A stretch of DNA of 64,000 bases from Gemmatimonadota bacterium (GCA_034521595.1 JAXHMG010000003.1:1504001-1568000); one strand, 5' to 3'; shown: positions 1-20,387, numbered from the stretch's first letter. Numbers and translations: made by a program. Notes: generated by a model from the letters alone, not told the origin.

Positions 1-5
1 GGCGA

Positions 6-580
6 CTACCAAGCTCCCGACCAGCCTCCAGTTCGGTCACCCCAGCCTCTGAGCAGGAGATCGTCAATCTCCGTGTGACTCCAATCGGATATGACATTCC
101 GGACTCGAATCAGGTCATTCCGAGGCGGTGTTGGTAGCCCCCGCGGAGTGAATCGCCCGAGCAGTTGAGTACTGACGTCAACGCCTCCCTGGGCCAAGAC
201 GGCTAAGAGGTCGCCGCGTTTGACAGCCCAGTGATGTCGGCTGAACTCAAACTGTTCGATATCGAGGTGACCGCGGAGGCGCCAGATCGCGTCGTTGGTT
301 AGCGGCTCGGGGCTAAGATCCTCAGAGACGGAAACCACGATATCACTGCCTGTACGGCGGATGGACTCGATCTCAACAAGGTACGCTCGCTCATCCGCAC
401 GCCCCTCTTGCATAAGAAGGCAGGGCCAGGACTGGATAGACCTGCATCGCCTCGGAAGAGCGGCTTCGAAGTTGATCGGAAATGACCCGGACCGTGCTAC
501 TCGAGAAACCGGGAGGGCTCGACGGTGACGAAATGTTCGTCGAGTTGCGCTACGTCGTTCGAGACTATCAGGTTGTACAT
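6..580 (-). pseudogene. Frameshifted hypothetical protein (MYNL...FLEYT...HHWAVK N-terminal domain); probably continues beyond the window start
   Basis: ATG at 580 reads MYNLIVSNDVAQLDEHFVTVEPSRFLE, then an indel leads into the ORF-track frame (LDIEQFEFSRHHWAVKRGDL). From recall this resembles an N-terminal domain of TIR/Abi-type proteins; unverified. Confidence 0.5.
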
Positions 581-924
581 GCGGGCAGCTTACGGTCCCG
601 TCACTGCCGCGGAAAGAGTCGGGTCCCAGGATAGCACGGGCGCCCAACCTCACTCGAATGAGGCACGTCGGTGACCGCGGGTGGCGTCACAAGGACCGTA
701 GCCCGGGCGTCGGCGATCGCTGACCTGACCCCAGGGCCACTACCGGGAACTCTGCTGACATCGGGCTCTTGAACACTGATTCTCGGCCCGAACTCTACCC
801 ACAATCTCACCCCCATACGGGAAGATCCGACGCGCAGAATCAGGCCGATTGACCTTCTTCGCAGGGAGAGACCGTATCTCGACCCGCAGCAGGCTCCTGG
901 ATGCGGTCGCCACTTCTGAATTGC

Positions 925-1085
925 CGTGGCCCGGGTGAGCGCAAGAAAACCAGCGCTACTCCCAACAAGCTTCCCGTGCCTCAAGATCAAGACCAGCCGA
1001 TCGAGGATACGCTGCCTCGCGTCCGCTCTGGGCCATGTGGGGGAAGCGAACGAAGTGAGCGGAGCCGGAAACATACTTGTTATGT
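925..1085 (-). repeat. Truncated attC-like site (distal end of the array; outer R' arm missing)
   Basis: GGCCATGTGG...GAACGAAGTGAGCGGAGCCGGAAACATACTTGTTATGTG is nearly identical to the right half of the 13131-13286 repeat. The inner-stem partner CGTGGCC is at 925-931, but the CATAACGTTCAGATGTTTCCG arm is absent. Confidence 0.75.
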
Positions 1086-1294
1086 GATGGGTGCCGCTGT
1101 CCGTCGACATCAGTCACGTCTTGGGGTCAGTCCGCTCTTGCCATGGATCCTTCGCCGCGTCCATGATGCTCGGGTGAAGATCAAAGACATTATCCGTGTC
1201 AACGCCGGTTCAGAAGTGGACAGATCCGACGGAGTAGAGTTTGACACTTCCGGGTCGGGTTGGTTGGTCATCGGGGCATGAGGTTTCTCCTGGC

Positions 1295-2078
1295 TCAGGG
1301 GTGAGGGGACGGCGAGGCCGGCGTTTCTTCGGTGGCGGAGCCGGTAGCTTTCGCCGCGGATGTTGAGGGTGGTGGCATGGTGGAGTAGACGGTCGAGGAG
1401 AGCGATGGCGAGGACGGGATCGGGGAAGATCTCGTCCCATTGGCCGAAGCTCTTGTTGGAGGTGAGGATGATGGACTTCTGGGCCTGGTAGCGCTTGTTG
1501 ACGACCTCGAAGAGGAACGTGGCGTCGTGCTGCTCGAGGGGCAGATACCCGACCTCGTCGAGGATCGAGGACCTTGGGCCGGATCAGGACACGAAGCAGG
1601 ACAGTCGAGCCGGTTCTTCTCGCGATGGGCTCGGGAGCGGGTCACGAGGTCATGGAGCGTGAGGAAGTAGATGCGGTGCCCCTGCTCGATGGCCTTGAGC
1701 GAGAGGCCGATCGCCGAGGTGCGTCTTGCCGACACCGCTGGGTCCGAGGAGCAAGACGTTCTCGCCCTGATGCAGGAAGCGCAGCGTGGCGAGCTCGGCG
1801 ACGACGTCCTTGGGCACCTGAGGCTGAGCCTCGTAGTCGAAGTCTTCGAGCGTCTTGGGCGCCGGGCAGGCCGCTGAGCTTGAGGTTGGTGTTCACCCGC
1901 CGCTCGAAGCGAGCGGCGAGCTCGATGCGTGAGGAGCTCGTCGAGGACCTCGACCGGCGAGCTTCTCGCTCTTCTGGCCCCGCTCCAGGATCTCGATCGA
2001 GAGCCGTGAGCGCGGCTTCCAGCTTCGAGTTGATCGAGCTGGTCGCGGACCCGCTCGTAGCTGACCGCGCGCACTCAT
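1295..2078 (-). pseudogene. istB: IS21 helper ATPase IstB (frameshifted)
   Basis: MSAVSYERVRDQL start overlapping the istA stop; Walker A (GPSGVGKT) and DEVGYLP readable across frames. Confidence 0.85.
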
Positions 2079-3408
2079 GAGGCGCCCCCGCGAGCAACGC
2101 GCTCATAGGCATCGAGCGCGCCTGGATCTCACGACGGGCGCGACCTGCTTGAGGCGATCGAGTCGACCGACGAGCCGAGCTCGGCCGCCGCGACGCGCTG
2201 CATCGAAGCGAGGCGGGCCGCCTCGTCGTCCGCACGCCTTCTGAGTCCACTGCCACGTGTGAGCTGGCGGATCGCCTTCGGCGTGCTCGGCGAGCGTGCA
2301 CGGCCGGCTCCCGGAGGTCGGACGCGATGCCGACCAGGAGCTCGGTCGCCGAGGTAGACGGCGAAGCACGTCCGTCGCTCCTCGGCGGCCGCACCATCAC
2401 CGTGTGGCCGCAGCCGCGGGTCGGGCACGCTGTAGCGCACGCCTCGGAAGCTGAAGTGAGCAGTCGGCGGCCACCTTACGGAGCTCGACGGGCCGCATGT
2501 CGTAGGCCGGCACCGCGCTCGCTCGCCGGAGCTCGGGCAAGCTCGACGACGGTGGCGATCCAGCCGGCCGCTCGCCCGTGGTGCCGTGCACCCGGACGTT
2601 CGCGACCGTGTCGAGCCAGTGCTCGAGCTGACGGTTCAGATCCTCGAGATCGGTGAAGTGAGCGGCCCTCGAGGAACGATTGCTTCACGTAGCCGACGCC
2701 CCGCTCGACCTTGCCCTTCACCCGCGGCCAGTACGGTGGACTCGCCACCGGCAGCACCTCGTAGTGCTCGCACGAAGTCCAGGAACGTGGCGTTCCAGCG
2801 CACCGTGCCCGTCGTCACGTCGTGCTGGTCGACCGCCTGCTTCATGTTGTCGACCAGCAGCTCGCGCGGGCACGCCCAGGCGCTCGAACGCCTCCTTCAT
2901 GCACGCCAGCAGGGTCGGCCGCTTCATCGACGTCGTGAAGCGCGCATACATCCGGCGGCTGTAGCCCAGAACCAAGATGAACACGCACAGCTTCTTCGTT
3001 CGCCGACCCTGCTCGATCGTACCGCACTCGCCCCAGTCGATCTGGGCCTGCCGGCCGGGCAGCGTCTCGAAGCGCTCCATCGACCCGACGCGCATGAACT
3101 CTGCCTTCAGCGGCCGCATGAAGTCGCGGAGGATCGTGAGCCCACCCTCGTAGCCGAGCCCCTCGAGCTCTCGCTTCAGCACCGTGGCCGGCAGGTCGAA
3201 GCGCCTCCAGGCGAGCCCGGATGTAGTCCTTGTACGGATCGAGCTTCGAAGCCCGCCCGGCCCGGGGCTTCGGATACGGCTCGGTCCGGTTCAGATGGTT
3301 GTAAACCGTCTGGCGCGTCACGCCCTGAGCGGCGCGCGATCTCGGCTGATCGTCACGCCCTCTTCGGCCAAAGAATTTGATCTGCATGTGCTTCTCCCGT
3401 AGCATCAT
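2075..3408 (-). pseudogene. istA: IS21 transposase IstA (multiple frameshifts)
   Basis: Fragments SKLDPYKDYI, RFETLPGRQAQIDWG, LGYSRRMY, PYWPRVKGKVERGVGYVK. Confidence 0.88.
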
Positions 3409-4687
3409 CTGTCTCGAAGTCCTCCGGCGCGTGGGGCCGATCCTTGGTCGGACGACCCCAACCTAGCGCGCCAGAGGGCTTCTTTTTGGGTGAGGGGTTC
3501 CGGGGCCCTCTCCTCGCGCCTGCGGCGCTCGGGGCCCACGGCTCCCGCGGCTACGGAAGTGTCAAATTCTCAACCGTCGCTTCTGTCCAAGATCAAACCG
3601 GTGGGGACATCCGTGCGGCCCCAACCTTCTTCCGAGCGGCTTGGAACTGGTTCAGCCACTTCGATACCCTGATGTCGCTCTGGGCTGGCTCGGGAGTGCA
3701 TCCGCCCTGATTGCAGCCTTCTCTGCAGTGGTGGGTTGGATCGTAGCGCGACTCGCTTCGTTCGGACCGGTCCTCAGCTTCTTCCTCGCGCTAATCGCAT
3801 GGGTCTTGGTGTCTGTCGCCTTGGCGCTGAATCGATGGGTTCCAGGTTGGAATGCCCGCTCCCGAAGAGAAGGGGCCGTCCGAGCCTCTCGGGACCAGTG
3901 AGGAGTCTCCGACGGAACTCGTCTTCCACCTGCAGTCTCCGACCGAGACGTTTGACCTACGGATCGCTGGAGCCTTTCCGGGAAAGCTGGGCCTGATCGA
4001 GATCGCGAATCCGACCGAAGCCGTTGAGCGTCTCGGCGCGCTTCTCCTACCGACCGTATTCCGCCGGAATGACCTCTCTCATGACCCGATCTGGTGGTTT
4101 CGTGGCCATTCGAGCCAGTCCGTCGAGACGTTTCGTGATCTCGAAGGCGGCAGGTGCCTCCTCAATCACATGGAACTCACCTTACGGCGCGTCGTCGCAT
4201 ACCGCTCGATCGATACGGCCCACCAATTCGTCTATGTAGAGTGCGACCCTGATCCACCTGTTGGTTCGGATCCCCACTCGCTCCGTAGCCTTGAAGAAAG
4301 GGTCGCGGAACGCGGTTACGCGGCCGAGGAGTACGGCCTCTTTCGGGGCATGCCGTCACTCGGATGGAGTACGATGACGCTGCAGCCGTGGATTAACGGG
4401 AAGCTGTAGATTTCACCACGACGTCAGACCGAGCAGAGGTCAGGCGTCGGTTTCCTTACGAGGTTCAACTTCATCATCTGCGCGAAGTTCCATCCGCTGA
4501 AATCGGAACGCCCTGGATCAATCCGATGGAGGATATCCCGAATGCGATCCTCCGGGGTGGGGCGACTGTTGAAGATCTAGTCGAGCACATCCGGCAACTT
4601 CCGGCGCATCCAGGGGATGGAATGCACCTGGCCTAATCGCTCAGAAGCGAGACCAAGGAACCGATCCATCACCTGAAGGCACCTTTC

Positions 4688-4840
4688 ACATAACGTTCAG
4701 ACGTTTCCGACGTGGCCACCACGGAAGCGCCCACGCTACCTACCCGAGCATACGCTGCGATCTGCTCTCGTGCCACAAAACTCCGAGGCCATGTAGGTGA
4801 AGAGAGCGAAGCGAACGGAACCGGAAACGTTCTGTCATGC
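4688..4840 (-). repeat. attC-like recombination site (R'' degenerate)
   Basis: On the + strand: ACATAAC-GTTCAG-ACGTTTCCG-ACGTGGCC...GGCCATGT...CGGAAACGT-TCT-GTCATGC; nested inverted repeats shared with other copies. Confidence 0.85.
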
Positions 4841-4844
4841 AGAC

Positions 4845-5576
4845 GCTCTGGGCCCCGCTGTGCTGAGGAACCGTGGGAGTCTAGTACACCTGCGCTGTCT
4901 GGCCTTACGGGGAGAGTATCGAGCCCCGATGGTCCGGATGAATCGATCGGCGAAGTCCCCAATTCCACCGGCTCGCCAAGGTTGCCAAGCCCGTCGCTGT
5001 GTCTTCCAGCTAAGGCAAACGCTGTGATGGGAATGGCCAGCGTGAGCATAACGATTCCGTTGCGCACCCCGGAGAAGCTGACCGAAAGAGCGTTTGACCG
5101 AAGATTTGTCACTTTCTGATTCTGTTCAACATAGTAGAGTCGCCTCGCTCGCGCCCTCGATTCCATCCTTAATGACGATCTCTTCGTTGAGCGCAGGTTG
5201 ATACGTCCGAGCGACTTTCATTGCCTCCAACGCCCACCAGCCAGCTGCCAGCAGGTAGATCGCGCCCAGATAGCAGGACCACGGCGACAGCCACCGCTCG
5301 GCGATCACTCGGAAGACCGAAGAAGTTGACGCTGGCAGACAAGATCGCGAAGGAAAGAGTCACCCCAATGATGTTGCTCTTAGCCTTGTCTTCGATGGAT
5401 CGTCGCCGTTCCAGCTCAATACCTTCAAAGAATCGGAGGCGGTCCTCATCGACCGCACTCGCCGTCTGTCGAAGCTCCTTCAGGTGGCAGGAGAACGCGT
5501 CGTCTCGATCCTCCAAGTCCTTAAGGATGGCTTTCCGAGCATTTCTAGCGGCCGGGATATCCAACAGAAAGCACAC
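4845..5576 (-). CDS. Hypothetical membrane protein downstream of the ATP-grasp gene (frameshifted; ends approximate)
   Basis: Consecutive ORF fragments 5169-5576, 5126-5308 and 4669-5166 with ERRRSIEDKAKS followed by three hydrophobic segments. Confidence 0.55.
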
Positions 5577-5620
5577 GGCTCATGCGAGTCACCATCGAGG
5601 AGAGCCGTCCCCCACGGTGA

Positions 5621-6567
5621 TTATCCACGAATGAGAGCTCGTGCCAGAGTCAGGGATATCTCAAGGTCGAGAGCGGACTCCAGCCACACCCACTCTCCGA
5701 GAGGGTTGACCTCCAAGAAGAGGTATTCGCCGTCCCGCTCCATCAGGTCTATCGCCCCATATATCGAGCCCCAGGCGGTCCATCAGTCGAAGGCATCCAT
5801 CGACGACTTCGGTAGGCAATGTGGTCAGTCTATAAGACACGTCACCCTTGCGGAGCCGCCAGTCGCCGTCAATCGACTCGCCGTTGTCCGTGATCGCCAC
5901 CGCCCACCAGGTTGAGCCCACGATCGTAAGGCGAACGTCCACCTTTGGCTGGACACCTTCCTGTAGGACGTACGGCATCTACCGAGTTGCGGGCCTGAGC
6001 CTTGAATGCTTCAGCGCTCATCAGTGTCGTGTAGCCGAAATGGACGTCCGCATCGTCCTCCCAGAGCACGGTGTCCAATCCCTTTACGGCTACGCGCCCG
6101 GCACCAGGAAAGTGGTCAAACGGCCAGTTGCCGATTCTCGTCCATGGGATTTGCAGCCCGGCCTCAACCGCGACCGCGAGCTGCTCAAGCTTGTCGTTCG
6201 GATCTGTAGATCGCGAACGGAGAGTTGATCCAATGCCCACCTGCGGCGACCAATGAGCGGAGCATCGTCTCCCAATGGAGATGTCTCAACTGACTCGGCC
6301 CGGGACTCCCATGCGTTCGAACATACGCAGGCCGCTTGCAGTAGACGGAGTGAGGACCGGACACCGTGAAGGCCTGTCCTGAGGACTCACCGAAGATTGT
6401 CTTGGCTACCGGGTCGACGCTGATCCGGACCGGAGATCCTCGGTATTCAGTCGTTGGTAGGAGGCGTCTAGGTCACGAAGGTGCCCAACGACCAAGTCAG
6501 CGCCGAAATCGAATCGCGACGTGATCAGCAGGATCGTGGGAGCCGAAGAGGAAATGTCGTTACTCAA
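5621..6567 (-). CDS. ATP-grasp RiPP maturase (MvdC/MvdD-like), frameshifted
   Basis: TTG start overlaps the precursor stop; ILLITSRFDFGAD...RLNTED, KLEQLAVAVEAGLQIPWT, VAVKGL, PYVLQE, DVRLTIVG, DWR, FLEVNPLGEWVWLE motifs. Confidence 0.85.
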
Positions 6568-6776
6568 TATCCCTTCTGGTCCTCTCCGGTTTCGACGTCG
6601 TTCTTCTTCGTCTGGGGGCGGGGGCCTTCCGGCCGCCTCATCAGCAGTTCTCCCGATTCCGAGTGAACCCACGCGCCGATCTTCGGGTCATATGCTGCCC
6701 CCCTAGGTGTGGGATCGGATGCGGGGCGCGAGTTCCTGACTGCTCCTGCTATCAGCATGTGCTTAGACAGTTGCAT
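6564..6776 (-). CDS. Graspetide (omega-ester peptide) precursor, 70 aa
   Basis: RBS GGAGGA; C-terminal core PQTKKNDVETGEDQKGY rich in T/K/D/E; lies directly upstream of the ATP-grasp gene. Confidence 0.85.
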   Translation of the reverse strand: MQLSKHMLIAGAVRNSRPASDPTPRGAAYDPKIGAWVHSESGELLMRRPEGPRPQTKKNDVETGEDQKGY

Positions 6777-6983
6777 CGATCCTCCAGGACGTGATGACAT
6801 ACGACAAGACATGGGGCGGCACGAACACTATCCGTTTCTCTACAACAAGAGGGGTCCAGAGTGTCTCATAGACACGATGGAAGGGCTGGCCTCCTGGTTT
6901 TTTCGTGGATTAGCATCCCGAAGTAGCCCGGAGTGCCAGAGCCACCTGCGGCGTTCGAGCCGCACAGCCCAGGAGACCAGCCC

Positions 6984-8125
6984 ATGTCTGCGCCAATCTT
7001 CTTCGTCGGCCTCGACGTGCACAAGGACACGGTGACGGTCGCGGTGTTTCGCAACCGCGATGTGGAGCCGATGCGGGTCGATCGACTTCCCCACGACCAC
7101 AAGAAGCTGCGTCGCTACTTCCAGCGTCTCGAGGCCGAGGGCTCGAGTCCGAGCCTGCTACGAAGCCTCCGGGGCGGGCTACGTGCTGCAGCGCGCGCTC
7201 ACCGAGTGGGGCATCGCCTGCGAGCTCGCCGCTCCGTCCCTCATTCCGAGGCGAGCGCGGTGAGCACCGCAAGACCGATCGACGCGATGCGATCGAGATC
7301 GCCCGGGACTTTCGCGACGATCGCCGCGTGCTCATCCACATCCCCACCGAAGCCGACGAGCGCGTCCGCGACTTGGTGCGCTGCCGCGAGACCTTCCAGC
7401 GCGAGATCGTCAAGTCACGCCATTACATCCTGAAGTTCCTGCGCCGCCGAGGCTTCATCTACCGCGACGGCACGCACTGGACCACGCGCCACATGAACTG
7501 GATCCGACAGGTGCTCGAGCCCGGCACCCTCGCCGAGGAGGACGGCGTCGTGCTCGCCGAGTACCTTGCGCTCCTCGAGTACGAGTTGCAGCGCAGAGAC
7601 GAGCTCGACCGCAGGATCGAGGCCCTGGCGCTCACGCCCCGCTACAAGCCCCTCGTCGACCGTATCCGCTGCTTCCGGGGCTTCAAGACCCAGGCGGCCA
7701 TGGTGCTCGCCACCGAGATCGGCGACGTGCGTCGCTTCGAGAGTCCGCGCCAGCTCATGGCCTATCTCGGACTCGTGCCCGGCGAGAACTCCTCGGGCGA
7801 TCGAAGGCGACTCGGGGCCATCACCAAAGCCGGCAACGCACGCGTGCGTCATGTGCTCATCCAGGCCGCCTGGCAGTACCGACGACGGCCTGCCGTCGGT
7901 GTCACCCTCCGGCGTCGTCAGCAAGGTCAGGACCCGGCCGTCATCGCCCATGCCTGGAAGTGTCAGGACCGTCTCTACAAGGTCTTCCACCGCCTGGCCG
8001 CCAAGAAGCCCAAGCCCGTCGCCGCCACGGCCGTCGCACGTGAGATGGTCGGCTTCCTGTGGGCCGTGCTCAACGACATCGATGTCGCCCAACTCCAGGA
8101 CGCGGAGGTGAGCCGAGCCGCCTGA
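6984..8125 (+). CDS. IS110 transposase/recombinase (indels near 7145 and 7257)
   Basis: VGLDVHKD, CYEASG, KTDRRDA, YLGLVPGENSSG, ITKAGN motifs. Confidence 0.92.
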
Positions 8126-8340
8126 CCCCGATCCTGACACTTCACGTCCGGAAGGAGAGCGCCCGGGGCACGATAGGAGAACGCCTCGAAACGTTATGGG
8201 GTCCGGCTCCGTGCCCAATCCCCGCACATAGACTCCGGCCAGCTCCCGACGAATCCGTCTCATGATGCTCTGAGCCTCAACGCTCAACCATCGAATATCA
8301 GCAGGATGCATCGTCGAAGACGCCCCGGCCTCTCCTTCGG
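8126..8340 (+). ncRNA. Putative bridge/seek RNA of the IS110 element
   Basis: Non-coding 3' end containing ATATCAG (8295-8301, equal to the right end plus core) and CATCGT (8309-8314, reverse complement of left-end ACGATG at 6874-6879). Confidence 0.6.
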
Positions 8341-8421
8341 ACCGCGACTTGACAACACCCTTCCATATCAGGCGACCGGAACCGGGGCGTCCGTGGGCGT
8401 GGTGCGCCGGACCCGGAGCTC

Positions 8422-8793
8422 GTGGAGCGCCCTCGGCGTCGTACGTTCACGGCGGCCTACAAGCTCAAGATCGTGCAGGAAGCGGACGCGTGCGAGAAGC
8501 GGGGCGAGGTGGGCGCGTTGCTGCGTCGTGAGGGGCTCTACACGTCCCACCTCTCGGCGTGGCGCAAGGAGCGCGACAAGGGAGCGCTCCAGGCGCTGTC
8601 GAAGCCTCGGGGTCGGCCGAAGCCGGATCCACGCGACGGCGAGATCGAGCGGCTGCGCCGGCGTGCGGAGCGAGCCGAAGCCGAGCTGGCCACGGCCCAC
8701 AAGGTCATCGAGGTGCAGGGAAACGTCTCGGCGCTCTTGGAAGAGCTGCTCCAGGCTGGGGGCGCGAAGCAGAACGGGAGCAGCGAGCGGTGA
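8422..8793 (+). CDS. IS3 OrfA (HTH)
   Basis: RRRTFTAAYKLKIVQEADAC...GALLRREGLYTSHLSAWR. Confidence 0.88.
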   Translation: MERPRRRTFTAAYKLKIVQEADACEKRGEVGALLRREGLYTSHLSAWRKERDKGALQALSKPRGRPKPDPRDGEIERLRRRAERAEAELATAHKVIEVQGNVSALLEELLQAGGAKQNGSSER

Positions 8794-9794
8794 CGGAGCA
8801 GGCCGTGGAAGAGCTCACGCCACTGATCGGGACGAGTCCGGCGTGCCGGGCCCTCGGGACGGCACGGGCGACGATCTACCGGCGTCGGCGTCCACCCGAG
8901 CCCCGGCCCCGGAAGCCTCGGCCGAAGCCGGCGCGGGCGCTCTCGGAACAGGAGCGCGACGCGGTGCTCGAAGCGCTGCACTCCGAGCGCTTCGTCGATG
9001 CCTCACCGGCACAGGTCTGGGCCACGCTGCTCGATGAAGGCCGTTACCTGGCGTCGGAGCGCACGATGTACCGCCTCCTGGCCGAGCAGAGCGGGAGCCG
9101 GGAGCGGCGCGACCAGTTGGTCCATCCGGCCTATGCCAAGCCGGAGTTGCTGGCCACGCGGCCCAACGAGCTCTGGAGCTGGGACATCACCAAGCTCCTG
9201 GGGCCGGCCAAGTGGACCTACTTCTACCTCTACGTCATCCTGGACGTCTTCAGCCGCTACGTCGTGGGCTGGACGATCCAGCACCGTGAGTCGGCCTCCG
9301 TGGCCCAGCAGCTCATCGCCCAGAGCATCGAGCAGCAGGACGTCGGGGCCGGCGAGCTCACGATCCACGCCGACCGCGGCACCTCGATGCGCTCGAAGCC
9401 GGTCGCGTTCCTGCTCGCCGACCTCGGCGTCACGAAGACGCACTCGAGGCCCTACACCTCGACGGACAACCCCTACTCCGAGGCCCAGTTCAAGACGCTC
9501 AAGTACCGGCCCGACTTCCCCCACCGCTTCGCCTCGATCCTGCACGCGAGGTCCTGGGCCCGGGGCTTCTTCGCCTGGTACAACCATGAGCACCGCCACT
9601 CCGGCCTTGGCCTCATGACCCCGACCACGGTCCACTACGGCCGGGCCGACGAGGTCAGGGAACAGCGTGGTGAGGTGCTCGAGGCCGCCTACGCGGCCAA
9701 CCCCGAACGCTTCGTGCGCGGGCTACCCCAGCCGCCCAAGTCGCCCACCGCAGCTTGGATCAACCCACCCGCCACCGAGGAGGATGCTCACTAA
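8790..9794 (+). CDS. IS3 OrfB DDE transposase
   Basis: WSWDITKL, IHADRG, DNPYSEAQFKTLK; GTGA overlap with orfA. Confidence 0.92.
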   Translation: MTEQAVEELTPLIGTSPACRALGTARATIYRRRRPPEPRPRKPRPKPARALSEQERDAVLEALHSERFVDASPAQVWATLLDEGRYLASERTMYRLLAEQSGSRERRDQLVHPAYAKPELLATRPNELWSWDITKLLGPAKWTYFYLYVILDVFSRYVVGWTIQHRESASVAQQLIAQSIEQQDVGAGELTIHADRGTSMRSKPVAFLLADLGVTKTHSRPYTSTDNPYSEAQFKTLKYRPDFPHRFASILHARSWARGFFAWYNHEHRHSGLGLMTPTTVHYGRADEVREQRGEVLEAAYAANPERFVRGLPQPPKSPTAAWINPPATEEDAH

Positions 9795-9836
9795 TATCAG
9801 ACCACCTTCTGTCTCATCGGCGTTGACAGGTTCCGC

Positions 9837-9957
9837 TTCACGCTAGATACGTACGGATGCTTCGGCCCAGAACTGAAACAGAAAAAGCGACGGGCCGCGC
9901 CCGCCGCCACCCTATCCGTCCGCGGTCTTGCTTCGGTCCTTCTTAATGGTGTTATGA
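9837..9957 (-). repeat. Remnant of an attC site disrupted by IS3/IS110
   Basis: GTTATGAGTCGTTGCAGGC at 9951 is an inverted match to GCCTGCAATGACTCATAAC at 11010-11028; the remainder differs from the main attC family. Confidence 0.5.
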
Positions 9958-9979
9958 GTCGTTGCAGGCACGGTCGTCG

Positions 9980-10937
9980 TCACCGTACCGCTACCCCTTC
10001 TTTGGCTCGTTGGTCGTATACTGTCCCACGATCGACGGCACCTCTCCTGGTACGGCGCTCCAGATCCTCCCCTTCGCTCGATCAGGTCTGAGAACAGGGC
10101 AACTGTGTCGAGATGAATACCTCTTTCGCTCTCCTCCTTACGGCGGCTAAGCCAATTACCTTCTCCTGGCCCTCCGTGCGATAGCGTTCAATCGCATCGG
10201 GTGACTAGCTGATCGGCAGGATCGGAGCTTCGGCTCTGCAGGGACTCCCGAAGTTTGTGATGCACGACGGCCAGCCCGGCAACGTACTCACGGATCAGCG
10301 GTACTCAGATCGACCACCTCCCCAAGATCGGCCAGTTCATCGAGAACGTTCGACTGAAGCCTCCATCCTCCCGGAGACGCTCGGTATCGATGCTCGGTAC
10401 TATTGCATTTCGGCGGGTCGAGCCTTCTTCAAGTCGGTCGCGCCAGAACTGATGGGACATGCGCACCGCACCGCAACTCCCCGGGTGCTGCGTGTAGTTC
10501 CGAAGGGCCTCCATCGCCCGGTATCCGAGACGGGAGTCATACTCGATGGATCGCCATGCGTTGAACCGGGCAAGACCGGTCCGAGTCTTTGCCGAATCGG
10601 CAGCTGAGTAGGTGACGGCGCCTGATCCAGGTATCCTCTTCCACCCGAAAGGAGGTTCACGACTCTTCGGTCGACATCGTGGATGGTTCCGACCGCACTC
10701 GGACCAAGACCCCTCTGTACAGAGGAGTGAATACAACGCCCGATCGAGCAGGGCACCTTCGTACTCATAGAAGTTTGCCAGGACGAGATGGAAGCCTTCT
10801 TCCAAAGCGAGGGCGTCCACCAGTAGACCCTTGGCGTCCTTCAGCTCCTGGAAGTCGCTCCGATCAAGCGGGAGGAATGGTGTCTTCCCGAAGACGGCGA
10901 TCTGACCAGAGCCGTGTCCGACCTGATCATCGTTCAT
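9980..10937 (-). CDS. Cassette gene, hypothetical protein with HEPN-like RxxxxH motif (frameshifted; end approximate)
   Basis: Helical protein with RVVNLLSGGRGYLDQ and YRAMEALRNYTQH. Confidence 0.55.
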
Positions 10938-11021
10938 ACGGAAATCTGGATTGCTGCGTTTACCAAGAGAGAAGAGGAGGGACACCCCCCCGACGTCGCG
11001 CGAGATCCAGCCTGCAATGAC

Positions 11022-11143
11022 TCATAACGAATCAGGGGTTTCCGAACTTGCGGCCTGGCGCGGCTCGTCGCGCTCGCACGAGACGTGACAGGGCGGAAGT
11101 CAGGCCGGAGGGGCCCCGGAGCCGGGAACCCTCACAGTGGAGG
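11022..11143 (-). repeat. attC-like site, divergent member (R'' degenerate)
   Basis: TCATAAC-GAATCA-GGGGTTTCCG...GGCCTG...CAGGCC...GGAGC-CGGGAACCC-TCACA-GTGGAGG; same architecture as the others. Confidence 0.7.
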
Positions 11144-11169
11144 GCTGAAATCGCGCCCCGACCCGTGAC

Positions 11170-11905
11170 CATCCGTCCTATCGGGACCCATCCCAAGTGC
11201 GGGCTTTACGGATGCGCGTTCGAATCCTTCTCGGCAGTAGCGGGTCTCCCGCATCCAACCGGTACTTTCGCGAAAGTAATTCTCAGCGACGTTCTCCTGC
11301 CTTGCCTGCTTCCCCCAGTCGCACCAAAACAGGAGACAAACGATCTAAGATCCGGATGTCTCCCGAGATACCTCGTCTCCACGCAACTCTTGGAGGAGCT
11401 CACCGACAAAACCCTCCCTCCCGCTGTATCCCCGCATACTCATCAATCGTCCTGCAGAGCCTCTTCTATGTACATCCGAGCTGCCGCACGCACACTCCGT
11501 CTTCTCTAGAGACTTCGCCCGATCAGCAGCAGCGCTGAGACTCATTTCTCAGCTTCCAGAATCTTTGGTTAGCTTCATAGTCTATCACCCTCCCGAAATT
11601 GATCCAGTTTACCAAACTCTCATTTTCCCGCGCCATCCAGCGGGCCTCAAGGTCCTCTGCACCTTCCTCATCGAGATCGTCAGCCAAGATGAGAACCTTG
11701 TACTCGTCGTCGAGATGCCTCTTCACGTAGAATTCCCAGAGCTCATGCCCATTCTTCTCCCACGCACGGCGCCCCTTGCCCTTCCCGACGTAGAAGATCT
11801 CGCCATCGCGATCCACATGCGCGTACACGTAGAACCGACGCGGATTCGTTCGATCGGCCTCGTCGGATGGTGTCAGCCTCTGAGGCGAAGTGGAGTCACT
11901 GAGTG
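11170..11905 (-). CDS. GIY-YIG nuclease domain protein with helical C-terminus (frameshifted; ends approximate)
   Basis: FYVYAHVDRDGEIFYVGKGKGRRAW...AEDLEARWM...LVNWIN. Confidence 0.8.
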
Positions 11906-11980
11906 ACAGAGCGATACCGCGATTGGTAAAATGAAACAGCAGCTCGTTATGTGGCGTGCTGCACTTGGTCCATGACGCCA

Positions 11981-12700
11981 CTACTGCTCGGGGTAAACAC
12001 CCAACAACGCGGCGACGCTTGCTTTCCACTCCTCTCGGCACCCCCTCATCGCGACAGTAGCTCCGAAAGCGACTTCAATTTGTGTTGAAGAGGGGTGAAC
12101 GAGGTTCGCTCGACGTTGAATATCGGTGACCGCCTCTAGATCAGCGCTGAACCCAGTCGATGGACAGTACGCGATCCTCACCGGTTTCGATGAGGTGGTA
12201 CCTTCTGGAAACGACCGCCCTTCGCTCTGTCTACAATCAGCAGAGGACCACGAGGCCGACGCCCTTCTACGTCTGCGGCGGCGAGCAACGCGGTTCCCAT
12301 CACGGGAACTAAGGTCATGAGGCCCAACCGGAGATAGATCGGGGTCATCTGCCGATGCTCCATCGAAGACCTCCTTCGGGTAGCATCCAGTAACATCCGC
12401 CATCTCCCCTTCGGGGATGGCCGCTCGGGCGAACCGACCGCCTGCCGCCGGCCAGGCGTCTGATTAGAGCGATCGCAATCGCCGCGCAACGATCCAGATT
12501 CTCTTCAGGATAGTCACTGACGACGAGGAAGCCGTCGCCAAACTGATGCGCGAAGAGCCGCTCCCGTTCCTTCGGAAACACACGACGACCGATGCGGGCG
12601 ATGGCAGCCATGAGTTCGCCAATCGCCTGCACGTGGTCCCGCGACGATCGCTGCTTGAAGCCCTGAACGTCGATGTACAGTGACGATCGGTCGTCAGCGG
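11981..12700 (-). CDS. Class III nucleotidyl-cyclase-like protein (frameshifted; start approximate)
   Basis: LYIDVQGF, HQFGDGFLVVS, ARAAI-EGEMADV, VMGTALL resemble the metal-binding and core motifs of the cyclase fold. Confidence 0.55.
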
Positions 12701-13069
12701 AAGCAACCGTCGCTCCGAAAGGAGAGCCTCTCCGCCCTTTGCCACTGATCTCGCTCGCCAAACCCATCCTGTGGAGAGCCAGAAGCAGAACCGTGCAATT
12801 GCAGTTGTGGCCTCTCTGGCTGCGGTACCGAACACCTCGGGCGACATACTCCTTGAGATCCGTGGTCGCGGACGTACCGTCCGGCGGAATGCTGAAACGC
12901 ATGATAGAGAGCTTCCACACCAACGTAGAACCGCGAGTGGCCACGTTGGTAGCAGAGCCGTCGGTCGTCGGACGAGACGATCTTGGTGGTGCCGCCGCCT
13001 GGATTCTCAAGGAGCGTGCCCTGGGGGCACGCTGTCGCCCAGCCTGTGCGAGAACTGAGTAAAATCCAT
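12694..13069 (-). CDS. Small hypothetical protein with GHNCNCT motif (frameshifted)
   Basis: Reconstructed across indels: MDFTQFSHRL...NPGGGTTKIV...CYQRGHSRFYV...TTDLKEY...GHNCNCTVLLLALHRMGL...GRRGSPF. Confidence 0.5.
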
Positions 13070-13130
13070 GGAGATCGGCGCCGCCTCCCGATAGAGCTTC
13101 CAACTCACGGCACCTCGTTCCTAGCATGCC

Positions 13131-13286
13131 ACATAACGTTCAGATGTTTCCGACGTGGCCACAGCATATGCGCTCATCTTTCCTGGGCCTTCGGAGTGCA
13201 GCTGACAGCATACGATATCAGCACGTTCGAGGCCATGTAGGTCGGAGCGAACGAAGTGAGCGGAGCCGGAAACATTCTTGTTATGT
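13131..13286 (-). repeat. Intact attC-like site
   Basis: ACATAAC / GTTATGT perfect R pair; ATGTTTCCG / CGGAAACAT; ACGTGGCC / GGCCATGT. Confidence 0.92.
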
Positions 13287-13335
13287 GATGGCCTTTCGCT
13301 GTTTCCCTACACCGATTCGCACTCTTGGGCAGCGG

Positions 13336-14533
13336 TCAGCTTCGGGCAAGTTCGTAGATCCGAGCGTACTCGACCTCAAGTTCGTCCCGCCAGACCCCGA
13401 CCACTTGGTCCCCCAGGATCTGAGTCGGGCGGAGCCGCTGATCGGGAAACTCGACGGTGCCGAGCCAGACTCCTTCACGATCGAAGACAGCCCAAGAACG
13501 AGCATCACCATCGTACGAAAAGTCCTGGACCCAAAGGAACCCCTCACTGTCGACAAGGAACCTCGAGTAGGCCGGTCGGCTCTGAGGTTGCGGCTGCTCT
13601 TGGTAACGGGCCCGAAGACCAGGTCGAGCGCCTTCTGGAGCTGCGAGCACTCGTGCCTCAACAGCGGCGTCGTAGGACACCTCATCCAATCGGACGTCGA
13701 CATCCGATCTGCGGATCAGACTTCGGAGGATACCGTCCTCAGAATAGACGCCGATCTGGTATGCATCTTGAGAACCCTGAAGGATCTCCTCACCCCGGAC
13801 TGCGTGACTCACCGACCGGGCCAAGAGAGGACGGAGCATCTCCACAGTCTGAGGGCCGTACATCAGGATCCGTTCCGAGCCCGGAGTCACGAGGACCGTG
13901 TCTTCCAGCGCTCCGGAGTGGGTCGATCCGGACGTAGGCTGCTCCGAACCTAGTCGGAGACCGGCGGGCAACTCGTCGATGATCGCCGACGAGAATGCGA
14001 GGTGCGCGGCCGGCGCGACGAGCCCCCGCGACGAGCCGACCGGACCAAGTCCTGCGTCGTCCACCGCAGCCCGGGCAACCCGAAACGGTCCGCTCTCGGG
14101 ATCCAAGACCGTGATCCTCTGCTGCGCGCCCGTCGAAGTCCCAGAGCGAGTCGGCGTTCAGCCCGATGGAAGGTCAGGCCCTGAAATTCCCCGGGCCCTT
14201 CGCCTGACCGACCGAACACGGAGATAGGGTTGCCAAGCAGGTTAAAAAGCTTGACCTGGCTGGCACCTTCGTCGAGCACGGCGATCCTCTCGCCGTGAGA
14301 ACGAAGACGCCCGAGAGCCGGTCGAACGCCGCATCGCCGTCCAGGCTACCCAGGCTCAGAACCGGATCCTGAGATACCTGCCATACCTCATGATCATTCC
14401 AAGCGGGACGACTGTTCTGCACGATCCGAATGCCGGCGCTGTCTTGGACGGCAACTGCAACGGGAGGAACTTCGTCAGACCCGCAGGCCGTGCAGATCAG
14501 AAGACAACCCAAGAGCGCTAGTCTCACCCGCAC
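13336..14533 (-). CDS. 6-bladed beta-propeller lipoprotein (frameshifted), cassette gene
   Basis: RBS GGAGGAG just after the GTT core; lipobox ICTAC; GRSGEGPGEF; WAVFDREGVWLGTV; GVWRDELEVEY. Confidence 0.8.
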
Positions 14534-14561
14534 GTTCTCCTCCGTCCAAAGAATGGCTTTC

Positions 14562-14721
14562 ACATAACGTTCAGATGTTGCCGACGTGGCCCACCACCGC
14601 TCCCTCCGGAGCCGGCCACCCGTCATGAATACGGCTTAGGCGCTCAACCCGCCACACCCGTTCCGGGCCATGTAGGCCGGAGCGCCCGCAGGGCGCGGAG
14701 CCGGCAACATACTTGTTAGCA
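14562..14721 (-). repeat. Intact attC-like site
   Basis: ACATAAC...ATGTTGCCG-ACGTGGCCC...GGGCCATGT...CGGCAACAT-ACTT-GTTAGCA. Confidence 0.92.
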
Positions 14722-15179
14722 GATGTTGGCTTCCTGTGGTCCACGCCACACTTACGGTTGACTTCACGAGGGACGTCGCGTCGACGGCTATCCGTCCCGG
14801 TGGTTCGACCTGAAACGGAAACCCCGCGGACACACGGTCGAGGGATCGCGCGAAGGAAGCCCAAGGAGCGAGCAGACCGAAGGTGTGGCCCCAGTCGACC
14901 GATGATGCCTCGGAGCGGGTCAACGCGCGATTCACCAAAACCTCTTTGGCGCCGTCGACGAAGAACCCGCCGGGTGGACATCGCAGTCGTGGATCGAGCC
15001 CGCCCGACCGTGTGGAGCCACACGGGGGGAGGGACAGCGGCGAATCCATAGGGTGGTGGGCGTGACTCGAGCCGAAGGTGCGAACCCCAGTCGACCGTAG
15101 ATGCCTGGGAGGATGTCAACGCACGAGGAGTTGAAGGCGTCGCCGCTGTCCTCGAACCTGACCGTCCATGGCCAATGTC

Positions 15180-15198
15180 CGCTAACTGGTTGTTGCCG
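15180..15198 (-). other. attI-like simple site at the head of the array
   Basis: Minus strand CGGCAAC-AACCA-GTTAGCG (inverse core, 5-bp spacer, core) with no attC hairpin upstream; GTTAGCGGACATTGGC matches GTTAGCAGATGTTGGC at 14715. Confidence 0.65.
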
Positions 15199-15472
15199 CA
15201 GAAGTGTGTCGCTTCTGCTCCTCGTCCTAGGCGGGATTCCCGACGTTGAGGATCTGGGGCTGGAGCGTCTGAGTAAGTTACCTCCGGTCTCCGCAACGTT
15301 CGCTCCCCCTCGGCGGAGCGCAAGGTAATCGCTCGGCGAAGGATCCGGGTGAGTCGGCGGGCGAGTCACGGCCTCCATCCGGTCGGCTGACGGTGGACTG
15401 GACCACGACCACACGTACGTCGAGACCTTTCAGTCGGCTGCATACGTGGACCGACCGTCGGTCGTCACGTTG

Positions 15473-16144
15473 TCACCCCCTGTCCTGGGTCCTTGAGCAC
15501 CCGTTCCGCCGGCCCCACTCGTCCACCAGCTCGGGGTTCGCTTCCGCATGACGCAGTGCTGCCGCGATCGGCAGCCCCTTCGAGACGTGCAAGCTGATGA
15601 CGAACTGCCACATCGCCGTCGCGAGGAGCATCGCCCCGTCGTCCTGATCGTTTGTGCCGGTTCGGCCTGGTACAGCCCGAAGTGCTTCATGAGCTGCTCG
15701 CCGTGCTCGGACTTGTCTTCGAACTGGAGGACGAAGTTGCCATGCATGTCCCATTTCCAGCCCTTCACCAGCCGCTGGAGGTCATCGGGAAGGGCGAGCA
15801 GATCCTCGGGCCGTTTAGCTCGTAGGCCCCGAACTCAGCGAGGTTGGCGAACGCCACCGCTGAGACCTCGTCGATCACGCGTTCCGCTGCGGTCCGCCTG
15901 GTTTCCTCAGCTCGACGCGGCGGGCGGCAAGATACGCCTGAACCTCTGGCTCCTTCAGGAGCTGGCGCGCATTCGTGGCGGCGTCCTTCCCCTTTGCCTT
16001 GAACCCCGACGCCTCGTACGCCACCCGGTGCCCCTTCCCTTCCAGGATGCCCTCACAGAACGCGATCCGTTCCGCGCTGAGCTCGCCGTCCTGAGCCTTC
16101 CCGCGTGGCCGGGCACGCCGGACCGCAGTGCCGTTACCAGCCAT
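15473..16144 (-). CDS. Phage terminase small subunit-like protein (frameshifted)
   Basis: RBS AGGAGA; ERIAFCEGILEGK...AYEASGF...AATNARQLLKEPEVQAYL HTH, then LPDDLQRLVKGWKW...EDK...LMKHFGLY typical of TerS. Confidence 0.7.
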
Positions 16145-16324
16145 GAGTCTCCTTCTCGGCACGGCCCATCGAGCCGCGCCCAAAATGGGGTGAGAACGGA
16201 GTGAGTTTGGCTTCGCTGGGGCAGCGGATCCAGGTTTCCGGACTTCGCCATCGGTACCGGAAAGGCATGAAACGACAAGACTTCCGGCACGCCGACAGCG
16301 AAATGCCGTACCCCCGCTGGCGGC

Positions 16325-16362
16325 TTTTAAGTCCCCTGCGTATACCATTTCGCCACCCCGGC
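16325..16362 (-). tRNA. tRNA-Leu(TAA) 5' half only (probable att junction)
   Basis: GCCGGGGTGGCGAAATGGTATACGCAGGGGACTTAAAA gives the acceptor 5' strand, D arm and anticodon loop; no 3' half seen in the window. Confidence 0.8.
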
Positions 16363-16500
16363 GCAAGCGTCTCGCAAGCTATGCTCCTCTCCCCCACCAC
16401 GGGAAGTCCGGCTCGACGCCCGGTGTACCGTCGGCGTCCTACCGGGCCGGGGGCCACACGGCACGGATGCGTCGTCTCATGGACGACGTCAGGTTCACGC

Positions 16501-17262
16501 TCAGGGCCGGCGGCGCAGGACCCAGATCTCCAACAGCGACCACTCCTCGCCGGGATAGTTCTCCTGCTCCAGCTGCGACATACGGCGGTGACGGGTGGCC
16601 GTGCTGCCCACGAAATCCAGCCGCTCCAGGAGGATGCGCTTGGTCTCGTCGGCCTTCTCCAGGCTGAAGGGGTTGAGGAAGTTCACCAGCATGTAGCCCT
16701 CGCGCGGGGCGCGGGCGAAGGCGTCGACCAGGCCCTTGATGACATCGGTCTCGAGATAGACCAGCGAGGCGGTGGAGATCACCACGTCAGCGTTCTCCAT
16801 GGCGCTGTCCACGGACCGCTTCGCCTCAGGCGAAGGGGCGTTGAGATCGGCGACCACGGTGTCGTCGAACAGGCCGGAGCGCTGGCCGTAGGCCATGGCG
16901 TTGCCGGAGATGTCGATGCCGGTGGTATGGGCCGGGAAGCGGCGGTCGGCCTCGATGGTCCGGCAGGCCTCGGCATCGCGCCAGTTGTGGCGGATGGCCT
17001 CGTAGTCCATGCCGTAGACGGTGGCCATGGTGGTGTTGCCGAAGCAGGCGCACAGGTCGACGTAGTTGACGGTCTCGCCGCGCTCCGCCTTTGCCTGCAC
17101 CCAGGGCAGGATCAGGCGGTCGAACATCTGGCGGTTGAAATCGTCCGAGATGTAGTCCAGCGCGTCCAGGATGCGCTCCTTGAAGGGCACCGGAGTCTCG
17201 GCGACGTAGATGTCGTCGAAATGCTGCTTCTTCTCGTCGGTTCTGATGCTGCTCTGGCTCAT
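16501..17262 (-). CDS. SAM-dependent methyltransferase-like protein
   Basis: FDDIY, YVDLCACFG, TGIDISGNAMAY, ADLN, ISTASLVY motifs. Confidence 0.65.
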   Translation of the reverse strand: MSQSSIRTDEKKQHFDDIYVAETPVPFKERILDALDYISDDFNRQMFDRLILPWVQAKAERGETVNYVDLCACFGNTTMATVYGMDYEAIRHNWRDAEACRTIEADRRFPAHTTGIDISGNAMAYGQRSGLFDDTVVADLNAPSPEAKRSVDSAMENADVVISTASLVYLETDVIKGLVDAFARAPREGYMLVNFLNPFSLEKADETKRILLERLDFVGSTATRHRRMSQLEQENYPGEEWSLLEIWVLRRRP

Positions 17263-17474
17263 CTTTCGTCTCTGCTTGCTGTGAAGTAGCGCGCTCTTTC
17301 GGTTCCCGCTTCGGCGGAAGCATCTCCCTATGTTAATGGTTTCCCCGTCTCTCGGCATTCGCACCCCCTCCCTGCTGGTGCTCACCGCGGGGCCGGCGCA
17401 TGCCGGCGGTCCCGGTCTGCCGAGCTCGCGGCCGATCGCATCACGACCGTGTCTCCCTGCGCTGTAGGCTGGGG

Positions 17475-17528
17475 TTGCATCTTCAGCGTGTTACCAGTAT
17501 ATATCGTGTATCGACGATCAACGATATA
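17475..17528 (+). promoter_or_regulatory. Sigma70-like promoter overlapped by a putative ArsR operator
   Basis: TTGCAT-17 bp-TATATA; inverted repeat TATATCGT (17500-17507) / ACGATATA (17521-17528). Confidence 0.7.
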
Positions 17529-17540
17529 GGAGCACCTGTG

Positions 17541-17942: not shown

Positions 17943-17956
17943 TGAGGAGCGCTCTC

Positions 17957-18562: not shown

Positions 18563-18610
18563 TCGCCGCCCGAGCGCTACGCATACCTTATAGAAAGAAG
18601 GAAGCACACC

Positions 18611-20380: not shown

Positions 20381-20387
20381 AGACACC

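Follow-up and report, generated by a model that had tools for sequence, protein, structure and literature searches.

How does a row of gene cassettes come to stand behind an integron attachment site without an integrase gene, and can such an orphaned array still trade cassettes? This question is raised by a locus of the Gemmatimonadota bacterium GCA_034521595.1, which we studied in a stretch of 64,000 nucleotides (JAXHMG010000003.1:1504001-1568000), here called the window; window positions are counted from its first letter, and coordinates preceded by C3 refer to the whole contig. The region 959-15186 is an integron-type cassette array that reads on the minus strand, and the locus is a CALIN, a cluster of attC sites lacking integron integrase (Cury et al. 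2016, PMC4889954), that by sequence homology retains its attI. In our best explanation, the region 959-15345 is probably the remainder of a second integron, lying on a decayed tRNA-Leu island, which kept its attI and lost its integrase gene.

The orphan platform and its island

By the definition of Cury et al. (PMC4889954), a CALIN has at least two attC sites and no integrase within 10 kb. The window locus has at least two attC sites and no integron integrase gene nearby, and it falls into this class because the integrase gene that precedes the array in relatives has been removed here. A preliminary description of this DNA had proposed an integron cassette array without integrase gene, and our searches agree: a covariance model of the local attC family (R1, see below) finds its sites in the window, and all matches of the genome to the integron integrase model TIGR02249 lie outside it. 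At a distance of 1.47 Mb, the same family of sites makes up a main array, at whose head stands an IntI-related recombinase gene (C3:34262-35458, minus strand). A tblastn search of the 64-kb window with this array-linked recombinase gave nothing below an E value of 3, and thus no integrase coding remnant.

The evidence that carries our explanation is the sequence ahead of the first cassette, where we place the putative crossover at G15186|T15185. Past 15186 the homology to the main array ends and the sequence reads C|TGGTTGTTGCCGCAG...; the first cassette of the main array ends alike, at ...CCCATAAC|TGTTTATTTCC, 234 nt from the stop codon of the recombinase. For the 70 nt upstream of this junction we aligned five loci: those of the window and of the main array, and three from other Gemmatimonadota (L008, L009 and L010). 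Common to the five are a TCAACG-type box (with variants in L008 and L010; both the window and the main array have the longer form TCAACGTCGG), a second block GACAC (ATACAC in L010) and a third block with the core AA(T/C)A(A/G)(A/C)(C/G)AG|TT, which has one extra base in L008. The five loci also share CTTGCG(C/T), 17 nt and (A/G)A(C/T)NTT; since a sigma-70 consensus scan of 15100-16400 found no promoter, we do not call the CTTGCGC-N17-AACGTT pair of the window a promoter.

Comparison with congeners shows where this sequence normally lies. In a search of five congeners with window 15187-16400, residues 1-152 of the query matched G002:C161:18165-18315 at 73%, beginning 64 nt past the end of a recombinase homologue (G002:C161:16896-18101). 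In pairwise blastn the window platform is 73% identical to that of G002 over 157 nt (E 1.6e-21) and to that of G003 it is 76% identical over 76 nt and 95% over 20 nt, versus only 84% over 32 nt and 88% over 17 nt to the main platform of its own genome. In G002 and G003 a ATTACCTTGCG motif lies about 85-95 nt past the recombinase stop codon; the homology of the window to these modules starts about 10-20 nt before the motif and stops about 75 nt short of the stop-codon position. Both the integrase gene and the ~75 nt that follow it are thus cleanly missing, which looks like a deletion or rearrangement and not like slow decay. The preliminary description had held that an intI remnant at 15200-15470 would speak for ordinary decay; what is present there is a non-coding remnant of the module, with no coding remnant (tblastn E > 3).

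Sequences homologous to the window site occupy the attI position in G002, G003, L008, L009, L010 and the main array, and to judge by sequence the window alone has no adjoining integrase. A pattern derived from the main and window sites finds only these two in the 3.49-Mb assembly. As far as homology tells, the window site is therefore the truncated tail of a normal recombinase-attI module, a relic, so that the attI-like site which the preliminary description had placed at 15180-15198 is borne out. A deletion or rearrangement with its breakpoint near 15340-15345 would have taken away the integrase gene ahead of it. Loss of intI and rearrangement away from intI are among the three CALIN origins proposed in PMC8618304, and both are also proposed in PMC4889954, where intI pseudogenes are reported near only 15 of 279 CALINs. 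The window fits these two origins, and the genome has further such clusters; it differs from the usual picture in keeping a recognizable attI with upstream platform, in leaving a non-coding module remnant but no coding one, and in sitting in a tRNA-integrated island.

The island runs from an intact tRNA-Leu(UAA) gene (C3:1489552-1489635, minus strand) to a 44-nt copy of its 5' end 30.7 kb downstream (blastn), which corroborates the tRNA att junction described earlier; ARAGORN found no tRNA in the window. The direct repeat is thus the 5' half of the tRNA gene, and the island integrase adjoins the 5' end of the intact gene. The usual tRNA att arrangement uses the 3' end, so that the island is a mirror image of it. 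Between the tRNA copies lie a split phage-type integrase gene, the array and a terS-like open reading frame (ORF), which places the array, as first described, inside a tRNA-bounded island next to such an ORF. A D5/DUF5906/Toprim primase is spread over three frames, and the type I restriction genes hsdR and hsdM, upstream of the array within L062:2850-9932 (G000:C3:1496850-1503932), are fragmented. The same interval encodes a CAP12/Pycsar-type TIR-domain protein. Because long genes outside the island are intact (SulP of 576 aa, ArsA of 589 aa, ORFs of 731-893 aa), these frame breaks look like real decay and not like assembly error. The array region has a G+C content of 57-64%, versus about 67% in the rest of the window. 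Just outside the island, at window 17400-20801, lies an arsenic operon with ArsR, ArsD fused to a carboxymuconolactone-decarboxylase-type domain, and the 589-aa ArsA.

This setting raises the possibility, favoured by the preliminary description, that a phage-satellite-like island carries attI and array as a built-in cargo site, relies on the integron integrase of its host and takes the array along with it. The array and its attI do lie between the tRNA-Leu gene and the 44-nt repeat, in the company of integrase, D5-type primase, defence genes and the terS-like ORF, and the window platform resembles the platforms of other species of the genus more than that of its own genome, as horizontal arrival would produce. 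However, the platform is what is left of an ordinary recombinase-attI module after truncation, and the integrase, primase and restriction genes of the island are split over several frames. The identity of the terS gene hangs on one weak match to PHROG 51 that covers only the DNA-binding part, with no match in Pfam or NCBIfam, and no capsid or packaging-redirection gene was identified in the island. No second terS-attI junction was found in the five congeners (query window 15187-16400): the attI part of the query occurs only beside the recombinase gene (G002), and the tRNA part everywhere. In G003 the tRNA-Leu locus shows no more than a terS-like patch of 50 nt, at a distance of 3.3 kb from the tRNA gene and on a contig without attC. 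A tblastx comparison of the island with that locus gave compositional noise only and was discarded. A cargo hotspot with its own attI is improbable, and that part of the preliminary description finds no support in these data. Integrons and attC clusters have been reported in bacteriophage genomes (PMC9892861), as has IntI-mediated cassette insertion outside att sites (bioRxiv 10.1101/2022.09.11.507474). The window resembles these cases in being an array on a mobile element, with cassettes remote from an integrase; unlike them, it has a homologue of a true platform at its head and not a secondary genomic site, and its carrier is a decayed island and not a recognizable phage.

Sites, cassettes and insertions of the array

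The intact repeats of the window are imperfect palindromes of about 155-165 nt with the ends CACATAAC...GTTATGTG, recognized by repeat search and sequence reading (Table 1). An Rfam scan of the window gave no family at threshold and no attC match. We built R1 from 23 full family copies genome-wide, three of which, those at 14561, 13130 and 4687, come from the window; the sites at 959 and 11021 were not in the training set. With filters off, R1 found five sites in window 1-20000. Both strands were run and all five lie on the minus strand, where the three intact sites score 140.6-153 bits versus at most 7.5 bits on the opposite strand.

On the minus strand, the consensus of the 23 copies starts with the core C-NN-ATAAC, a 4-nt spacer and a 9-bp stem of ATGTTTCCG with CGGAAACAT. 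It continues with a short side hairpin confined to the 5' arm, an 8-bp second stem of ACATGGCC with GGCCACGT and a variable centre, and ends with a 6-nt spacer and the core GTTAT. In this structure, which we specified ourselves, the 28 modelled pairs are 89.1% paired across the copies, versus 30-45% with slid partners. Compensatory changes on both sides occur in nine pairs, and the covariation score was matched by none of 500 shuffles, a count that is not a probability because the copies are related. The aligned cores read (C/T)ATAAC ... GTTAT(G/A), and helix 1 is 93.9% paired. These sites have the inverse cores and G|TT crossover of attC: ATAAC/GTTAT fits RYYYAAC/GTTRRRY, and a duplicated unit ends in TAA|C on both sides. 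They also share the same-orientation arrangement with gene-sized spacing and variable content. What they do not have is extrahelical bases, as the 9-bp L helix is 97.6% paired without an inserted column in 23 of 23 copies; in their place, a side hairpin of about 25 nt makes one arm differ from the other.

The minus strand is the reading strand of the cassettes, and attC folds on the plus strand. Four observations agree on this assignment: the borders of a cassette shared with the main array (see below), the ORF starts, the noncanonical pairs and the better plus-strand folds. Minus-strand cassette ORFs begin 4, 9, 42 and 66 nt past the crossover points. Pair 58/151 is A.C on the minus strand and hence G.T on the plus strand in 23 of 23 copies, and the tandem mismatches of the side hairpin, T.C/C.T on the minus strand, become G.A/A.G on the plus strand in 13-15 of 23 copies, the rest being Watson-Crick. 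As DNA, 13130-13287 folds at -28.6 kcal/mol (z -2.7) on the plus strand and -25.8 kcal/mol (z -2.0) on the minus strand; for 11018-11150 the values are -33.9 kcal/mol (z -3.6, none of 200 shuffles as good) on the plus strand and z -1.0 on the minus strand. Cumulative GC skew drops across window 1-64000, so that the plus strand would be the leading-strand template there; a folding strand on the leading-strand template has been linked to cassette stability.

About seven cassettes make up the array, each with TTA... at its start and an attC of the ~158-nt family at its end. Of the four full hairpins counted in the preliminary description, those at 4687, 13130 and 14561 are intact, and the one at 11021 is a divergent hairpin and not a full member of the family, because it scores only 18.7 bits. 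Its three remnants fared similarly: the distal one is a degraded but significant match (43.6 bits), while those at 9837-9957 and 11946 gave no R1 match and are core arms only, each keeping a GTTATG core arm with 15-19 nt complementary to the start of its own cassette. Folding of 9830-9962 was no better than that of shuffles, as expected for a truncated site. The earlier list of cassettes was roughly right, except that 1079-4694 holds an insertion sequence (IS) of the IS21 family and that 11137-11925 and 11946-13137 are one stretch, rearranged between cassette 3 and the 11021 hairpin. A candidate attC arm at 6838-6870 found no pairing partner. Searches of the cassette ORFs against Pfam, PHROGs and NCBIfam gave almost no match; ORFs without known family are usual for cassettes.

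Three insertion sequences break up the array, and given these and several truncated attC sites, the array is decaying. The attC of cassette 4 is truncated because an IS3-family element cuts it. The end of this element (9769-9836) is 87% identical to C3:966594-966661, a second copy that lies near a single attC at C3:967986, and the IS110- and IS3-family elements stand side by side (6985-9836) against the truncated site. Some IS110/IS1111 elements are known to target attC sites. A search for inverted repeats at the ends of both elements gave nothing clear. The IS21-family element, with NCBIfam matches to fragments of IS21 transposase and IstB, is 89% identical over 2443 nt to a copy in the main array (C3:18834-21197), and isolated IS21 ends occur at five other places on C3. 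A 1230-nt contig of a public run from another study (X2, a sediment metagenome) joins 1191 to 3609 with a 5-nt overlap and so represents the IS-free cassette.

Table 1. Features of the cassette array, its platform and the right end of the island (window positions)
Feature	Position	Strand	Remarks
Degraded attC, distal end of the array	959-1086	-	R1 43.6 bits, E 9e-10; right half 76-92% identical to other copies
Distal cassette	959-4693	-	Split by IS21-family element
IS21-family element, 2.4 kb	1192-3608		56-nt terminal inverted repeats 1197-1252 and 3554-3609; istA and istB split over frames
attC, intact	4687-4841	-	R1 140.6 bits
Cassette region, right boundary approximate	4694-~6900	-	Frameshifted fragments of ATP-grasp peptide maturase; TIGR04187 in 5664-5978 and 5872-6240, in different frames
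IS110-family transposase gene	6985-8125	+	PF02371, E 1e-20
IS3-family element	8422-9836	+	orfA 8422-8790, orfB 8559-9791; PF01527, PF00665, PF13683; abuts truncated attC
Truncated attC of cassette 4, R'' arm only	9837-9969	-	9951-9969 95% complementary to 11010-11028
Cassette 4	9837-11027	-	226-aa ORF 10305-10985, start 42 nt past crossover, no family match
Divergent attC-like hairpin	11021-11144	-	R1 18.7 bits, E 0.0013; without recognizable R'' core
R''-L'' arm remnant of cassette 3 attC	11933-11960	-	82% complementary to 13123-13150
Cassette 3	from 13136	-	260-aa ORF 12345-13127, ATG 9 nt past crossover, no family match
attC, intact	13130-13287	-	R1 141.2 bits; up to 91% identical to G003 attC
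Cassette 2, 1431 nt	13137-14567	-	Bounded by attC cores; ORFs 14563-14174 and 14106-13336
attC, intact	14561-14722	-	R1 153 bits; 96% identical to C3:31921-32083
Cassette 1 (attI-proximal), 618 nt	14568-15185	-	Second cassette of the main array is its paralogue
Truncated integron platform	15186-15345	-	attI core ...GGCAACAACCAG|TTAGCG; boxes TCAACGTCGG and GCGACAC; CTTGCGC-N17-AACGTT motif
terS-like ORF	15878-16366	-	phrog_51 E 4e-7, residues 88-154 only (DNA-binding part); at the usual place of the integrase gene
Copy of 5' 44 nt of tRNA-Leu(UAA), right end of island	16319-16362	-	95% identical to C3:1489592-1489635

The main array and its short recombinase

Genome-wide, R1 matches 30 sites at E <= 0.01: 16 in the main array (C3:1529-32695), 4 in the window, 4 at C3:1011787-1025242, 2 on contig C1 and 4 single ones, one of which is weak. 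All 28 matches on C3 lie on one strand; they are distributed over 1.96 Mb, and all but one fall in the first 1.52 Mb. The further clusters and single sites (C3:1011787-1025242; C3:332426, 967986 and 1449690; C1:737-3751) have no attI-like site, and those of C1 lie at a contig end, in an orientation that would fit a continuation of the main array from the start of C3 into C1. The recombinase gene, attI and cassettes of the main array are all co-oriented. The 16 sites of this array are spaced 0.6-2.7 kb apart (3.9 kb across the IS21 copy, with one 12.6-kb stretch without match) and end 1.57 kb short of the recombinase gene, with one more cassette and the attI in between.

This recombinase (P0001; L001:1198-2394, minus strand) has 399 aa with PF13495 and PF00589. 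It is the best TIGR02249 match of the genome, the others being two Xer genes and a 63-aa fragment. Its best match among solved structures is VchIntIA (PDB 2a3v, E 6e-45), in an alignment that skips chain residues 173-239, just as TIGR02249 positions 175-234 are unmatched; in this segment P0001 has 35 residues, versus 76 in five canonical Gemmatimonadota IntI and 39-41 in the two Xer proteins of the genome. The catalytic residues R255, K280, R348, H371 and Y380 are invariant in 42 homologues, so that P0001 combines the residues of a tyrosine recombinase with a position at the head of an attI/attC array. An AlphaFold model of P0001 (mean predicted local distance difference test score, pLDDT, 79.7; predicted template modelling score, pTM, 0.50) predicts an extra N-terminal alpha/beta domain at residues ~10-80 (pLDDT ~90-97), a low-confidence linker at 84-112 and no additional helix in 293-317. 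An ESM Atlas search with the N-terminal 120 residues gave a best score of 0.81, below lead level.

More than 120 homologues share at least 57% identity with P0001; they are labelled XerD, tyrosine recombinase or "site-specific tyrosine recombinase/integron integrase", and those named by organism are Gemmatimonadota and Longimicrobiales records. In a tree of 28 sequences, from which the unpublished genome L068 was left out, one clade (100/100) stands apart from XerC/D and comprises the short Gemmatimonadota recombinases (99/99), the canonical ones (95/95) and an Acidobacteriota group (90/86), whose mutual order is unresolved in this tree. Compared with canonical IntI (TIGR02249; VchIntIA), P0001 thus shares the N-terminal SAM-like domain and the catalytic residues and groups with IntI and XerA, but the segment ELPxAL..KYP..W.WQ.VFP..RHH is absent and P0001 has an extra N-terminal domain of about 80 residues, which is modelled with confidence.

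The short recombinase clade heads attC arrays in several Gemmatimonadota. Where at least 1 kb of sequence follows the short recombinase gene in Gemmatimonadota, same-strand R1 sites come after it in 5 of 7 loci: 16 in the main array of this genome, 13 in G003:C2, 11 in L009, 7 in L079 and 1 in L008, with none in L081 and L083. In the same 5 of 7 loci, the gene and a conserved junction ...AG|TTA precede the attC sites. G002, L010 and L080 end at most 330 nt from the recombinase gene, and the attI junction is visible in G002 and L010. Outside the phylum, an Acidobacteriota metagenome-assembled genome (MAG; L012, 7011-18950) and an Ignavibacteriota MAG (L084, 9117-15888) have recombinases without the IntI-specific domain, 42-47% identical, beside attC-like arrays of their own type, which in L012 lie on both sides of the gene. 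Of two further distant recombinases without this domain, the one in L013 has no array beside it and the one in L086 a single match.

This linkage bears on the most sceptical view, namely that the repeats are no integron at all but elements of repetitive extragenic palindrome (REP) or miniature inverted-repeat transposable element (MITE) type lying between genes. The hairpins do lack the textbook extrahelical bases of attC, and the neighbouring recombinase lacks the IntI domain. Against this stand the cores that fit the attC pattern, the arrays of one orientation with gene-sized spacing, the same recombinase gene and junction ahead of the sites in 5 of 7 assessable loci, one unit duplicated exactly from core to core, and the clustering, not dispersal, of 25 of the 30 R1 matches. 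We regard such an origin as scarcely credible.

Canonical IntI (TIGR02249 above cut-off) occurs in 79 of 201 sampled genomes of the phylum (77 of 198 without three flagged as unpublished) and in 0 of 23 sampled genomes of the family to which the window belongs. The attC sites beside canonical IntI (L074 and L075) are textbook hairpins with two single-base bulges. In both L074 (10579-14400) and L075 the integrase gene is co-oriented with the cassettes, and the platform is short, about 110 nt in L074. The congener G005 encodes a canonical IntI (450 bits, G005:C76:12205-13149), and its assembly of 170 contigs does not allow IntI-attC linkage to be read. A strict co-variation, with bulge-less attC only alongside the short recombinase, was rejected since G005 has such attC together with canonical IntI.

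Gemmatimonadota are listed among the integron-bearing phyla in PMC8618304, and a large element on a 1.1-Mb replicon of Gemmatirosa is described in PMC9024848. Like the sedentary chromosomal integrons of Vibrio and Xanthomonas type, the arrays studied here can be large, with highly similar attC and variable cassettes (16 sites here and 53 in the large array of the congener G003). They differ in their head recombinase without the IntI-specific domain, and in attC of ~158 nt with a paired 9-bp L stem without extrahelical bases and a conserved one-arm side hairpin. PMC4889954 describes an inverted integron-integrase group, in which the integrase is co-oriented with the cassettes as it is in the main array. 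The same paper defines IntI by an additional domain near patch III, about 35 residues long, on which intI_Cterm is based, and concludes that 21 domain-less recombinases near attC, which were dispersed over the tree and had fewer than three attC sites beside them, are not IntI; these 21 may already include relatives of the short clade. The I2 helix is held to underlie single-strand recombination (PMC7790495). In the literature covered, which excludes subscription journals and supplements, we found no description of attC arrays headed by a conserved clade of domain-less recombinases. We consider it an evenly balanced proposal that the arrays of this genome, that of the window included, may represent a distinct integron lineage. 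Its integrase would lack the IntI-specific (I2) domain, never acquired or lost, and carry an extra N-terminal domain, and the strand would be marked by the side hairpin and the G.T and G.A pairs.

Probable exchange between the arrays and its meaning

Between window 14558-15186 and C3:31915-32543 the identity is 93.5% over 630 nt, with a 1-nt indel. The homology spans from the left core to the next TAA|C; with a minus-strand crossover at G|TT, this corresponds precisely to a single cassette. Because the borders of this paralogue are exact while the two platforms are far more diverged, we infer exchange in trans: the resident recombinase, acting on the folded plus strand of attC and on the window attI, would have moved at least one cassette between the arrays. 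The preliminary description had suggested loading in trans by an IntI encoded elsewhere; an array of the same family headed by a recombinase elsewhere, together with one shared cassette with site-specific bounds, makes this plausible, and we consider cassette exchange in trans likely. The cassette bodies are absent from five related genomes (four congeners and G016 of the same family), though attC sites are up to 91% identical. Shared attC with unshared cassette bodies is the usual pattern of integrons.

It could also be that the array is an inert fossil, with no recombination since the loss of the integrase and with the shared cassette present in both arrays before that event. The three IS insertions, the truncated attC and the frameshifted cassette genes would suit it, and so would the 6.5% divergence of the shared cassette and the lack of observed excision joints. 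On the other hand, three attC sites of the window equal those of the main array in score, and the shared cassette is 93.5% similar, where the platforms share only patches of 32 and 17 nt, and is attI-proximal. The attI-proximal position is the entry point of new cassettes. We therefore regard a complete standstill as rather unlikely, and a second integron that lost its integrase gene and kept its attI remains our preferred explanation. Exchange between the two arrays may or may not continue today.

Several observations weigh against this explanation or parts of it. No excision circles or cassette-wise deletions were seen in the public runs, of which contigs were searched; attC-to-attC joints in these contigs have sides of 20-31 nt and may stem from other organisms. 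One of the runs, X1, contains 0.32 of the sampled words and is possibly the source sample. The genome is 93% complete, so that an integrase gene in the unassembled part is possible. The attI core of the window, GGCAACAACCAG, is closer to the cores of the congeners than to the main attI, GGAAATAAACAG, and its recognition by the resident recombinase is putative. The divergence and indel of the shared cassette mean that any exchange was not recent. P0001 stays below the curated cut-offs for IntI (213.5 bits versus 265 for TIGR02249, and 210.1 versus 220 for NF040815, XerA/integron integrase) and lacks the IntI-specific domain. Finally, no orthologue of the short recombinase was found in the 170-contig assembly of G005 (best match 38% identical), and G005 (L076, L078) has attC of ~96 nt with the architecture of the window sites, without bulges and with a minimal centre. 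Because G005 pairs this architecture with canonical IntI, the short recombinase is only a candidate for the enzyme acting on this type of attC.

The window is a clear example of how a CALIN may originate, with the integrase cut away and the attI surviving, and the cassette common to both arrays suggests that cassette trade at orphan platforms is still possible. The IntI-specific domain, by binding extrahelical bases, underlies both integron detection and the accepted mechanism by which folded single-stranded attC is recognized. If the arrays of this genome are indeed a distinct lineage, standard tools would report all such arrays as CALINs, and the 2016 conclusion that domain-less recombinases near attC are not integron integrases would be contradicted. 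Folded attC could then be recombined by a second mechanism, or by one that stands midway between the Xer and the integron types, and a share of the "integrase-less" arrays of soil phyla would be complete integrons that the tools have missed.

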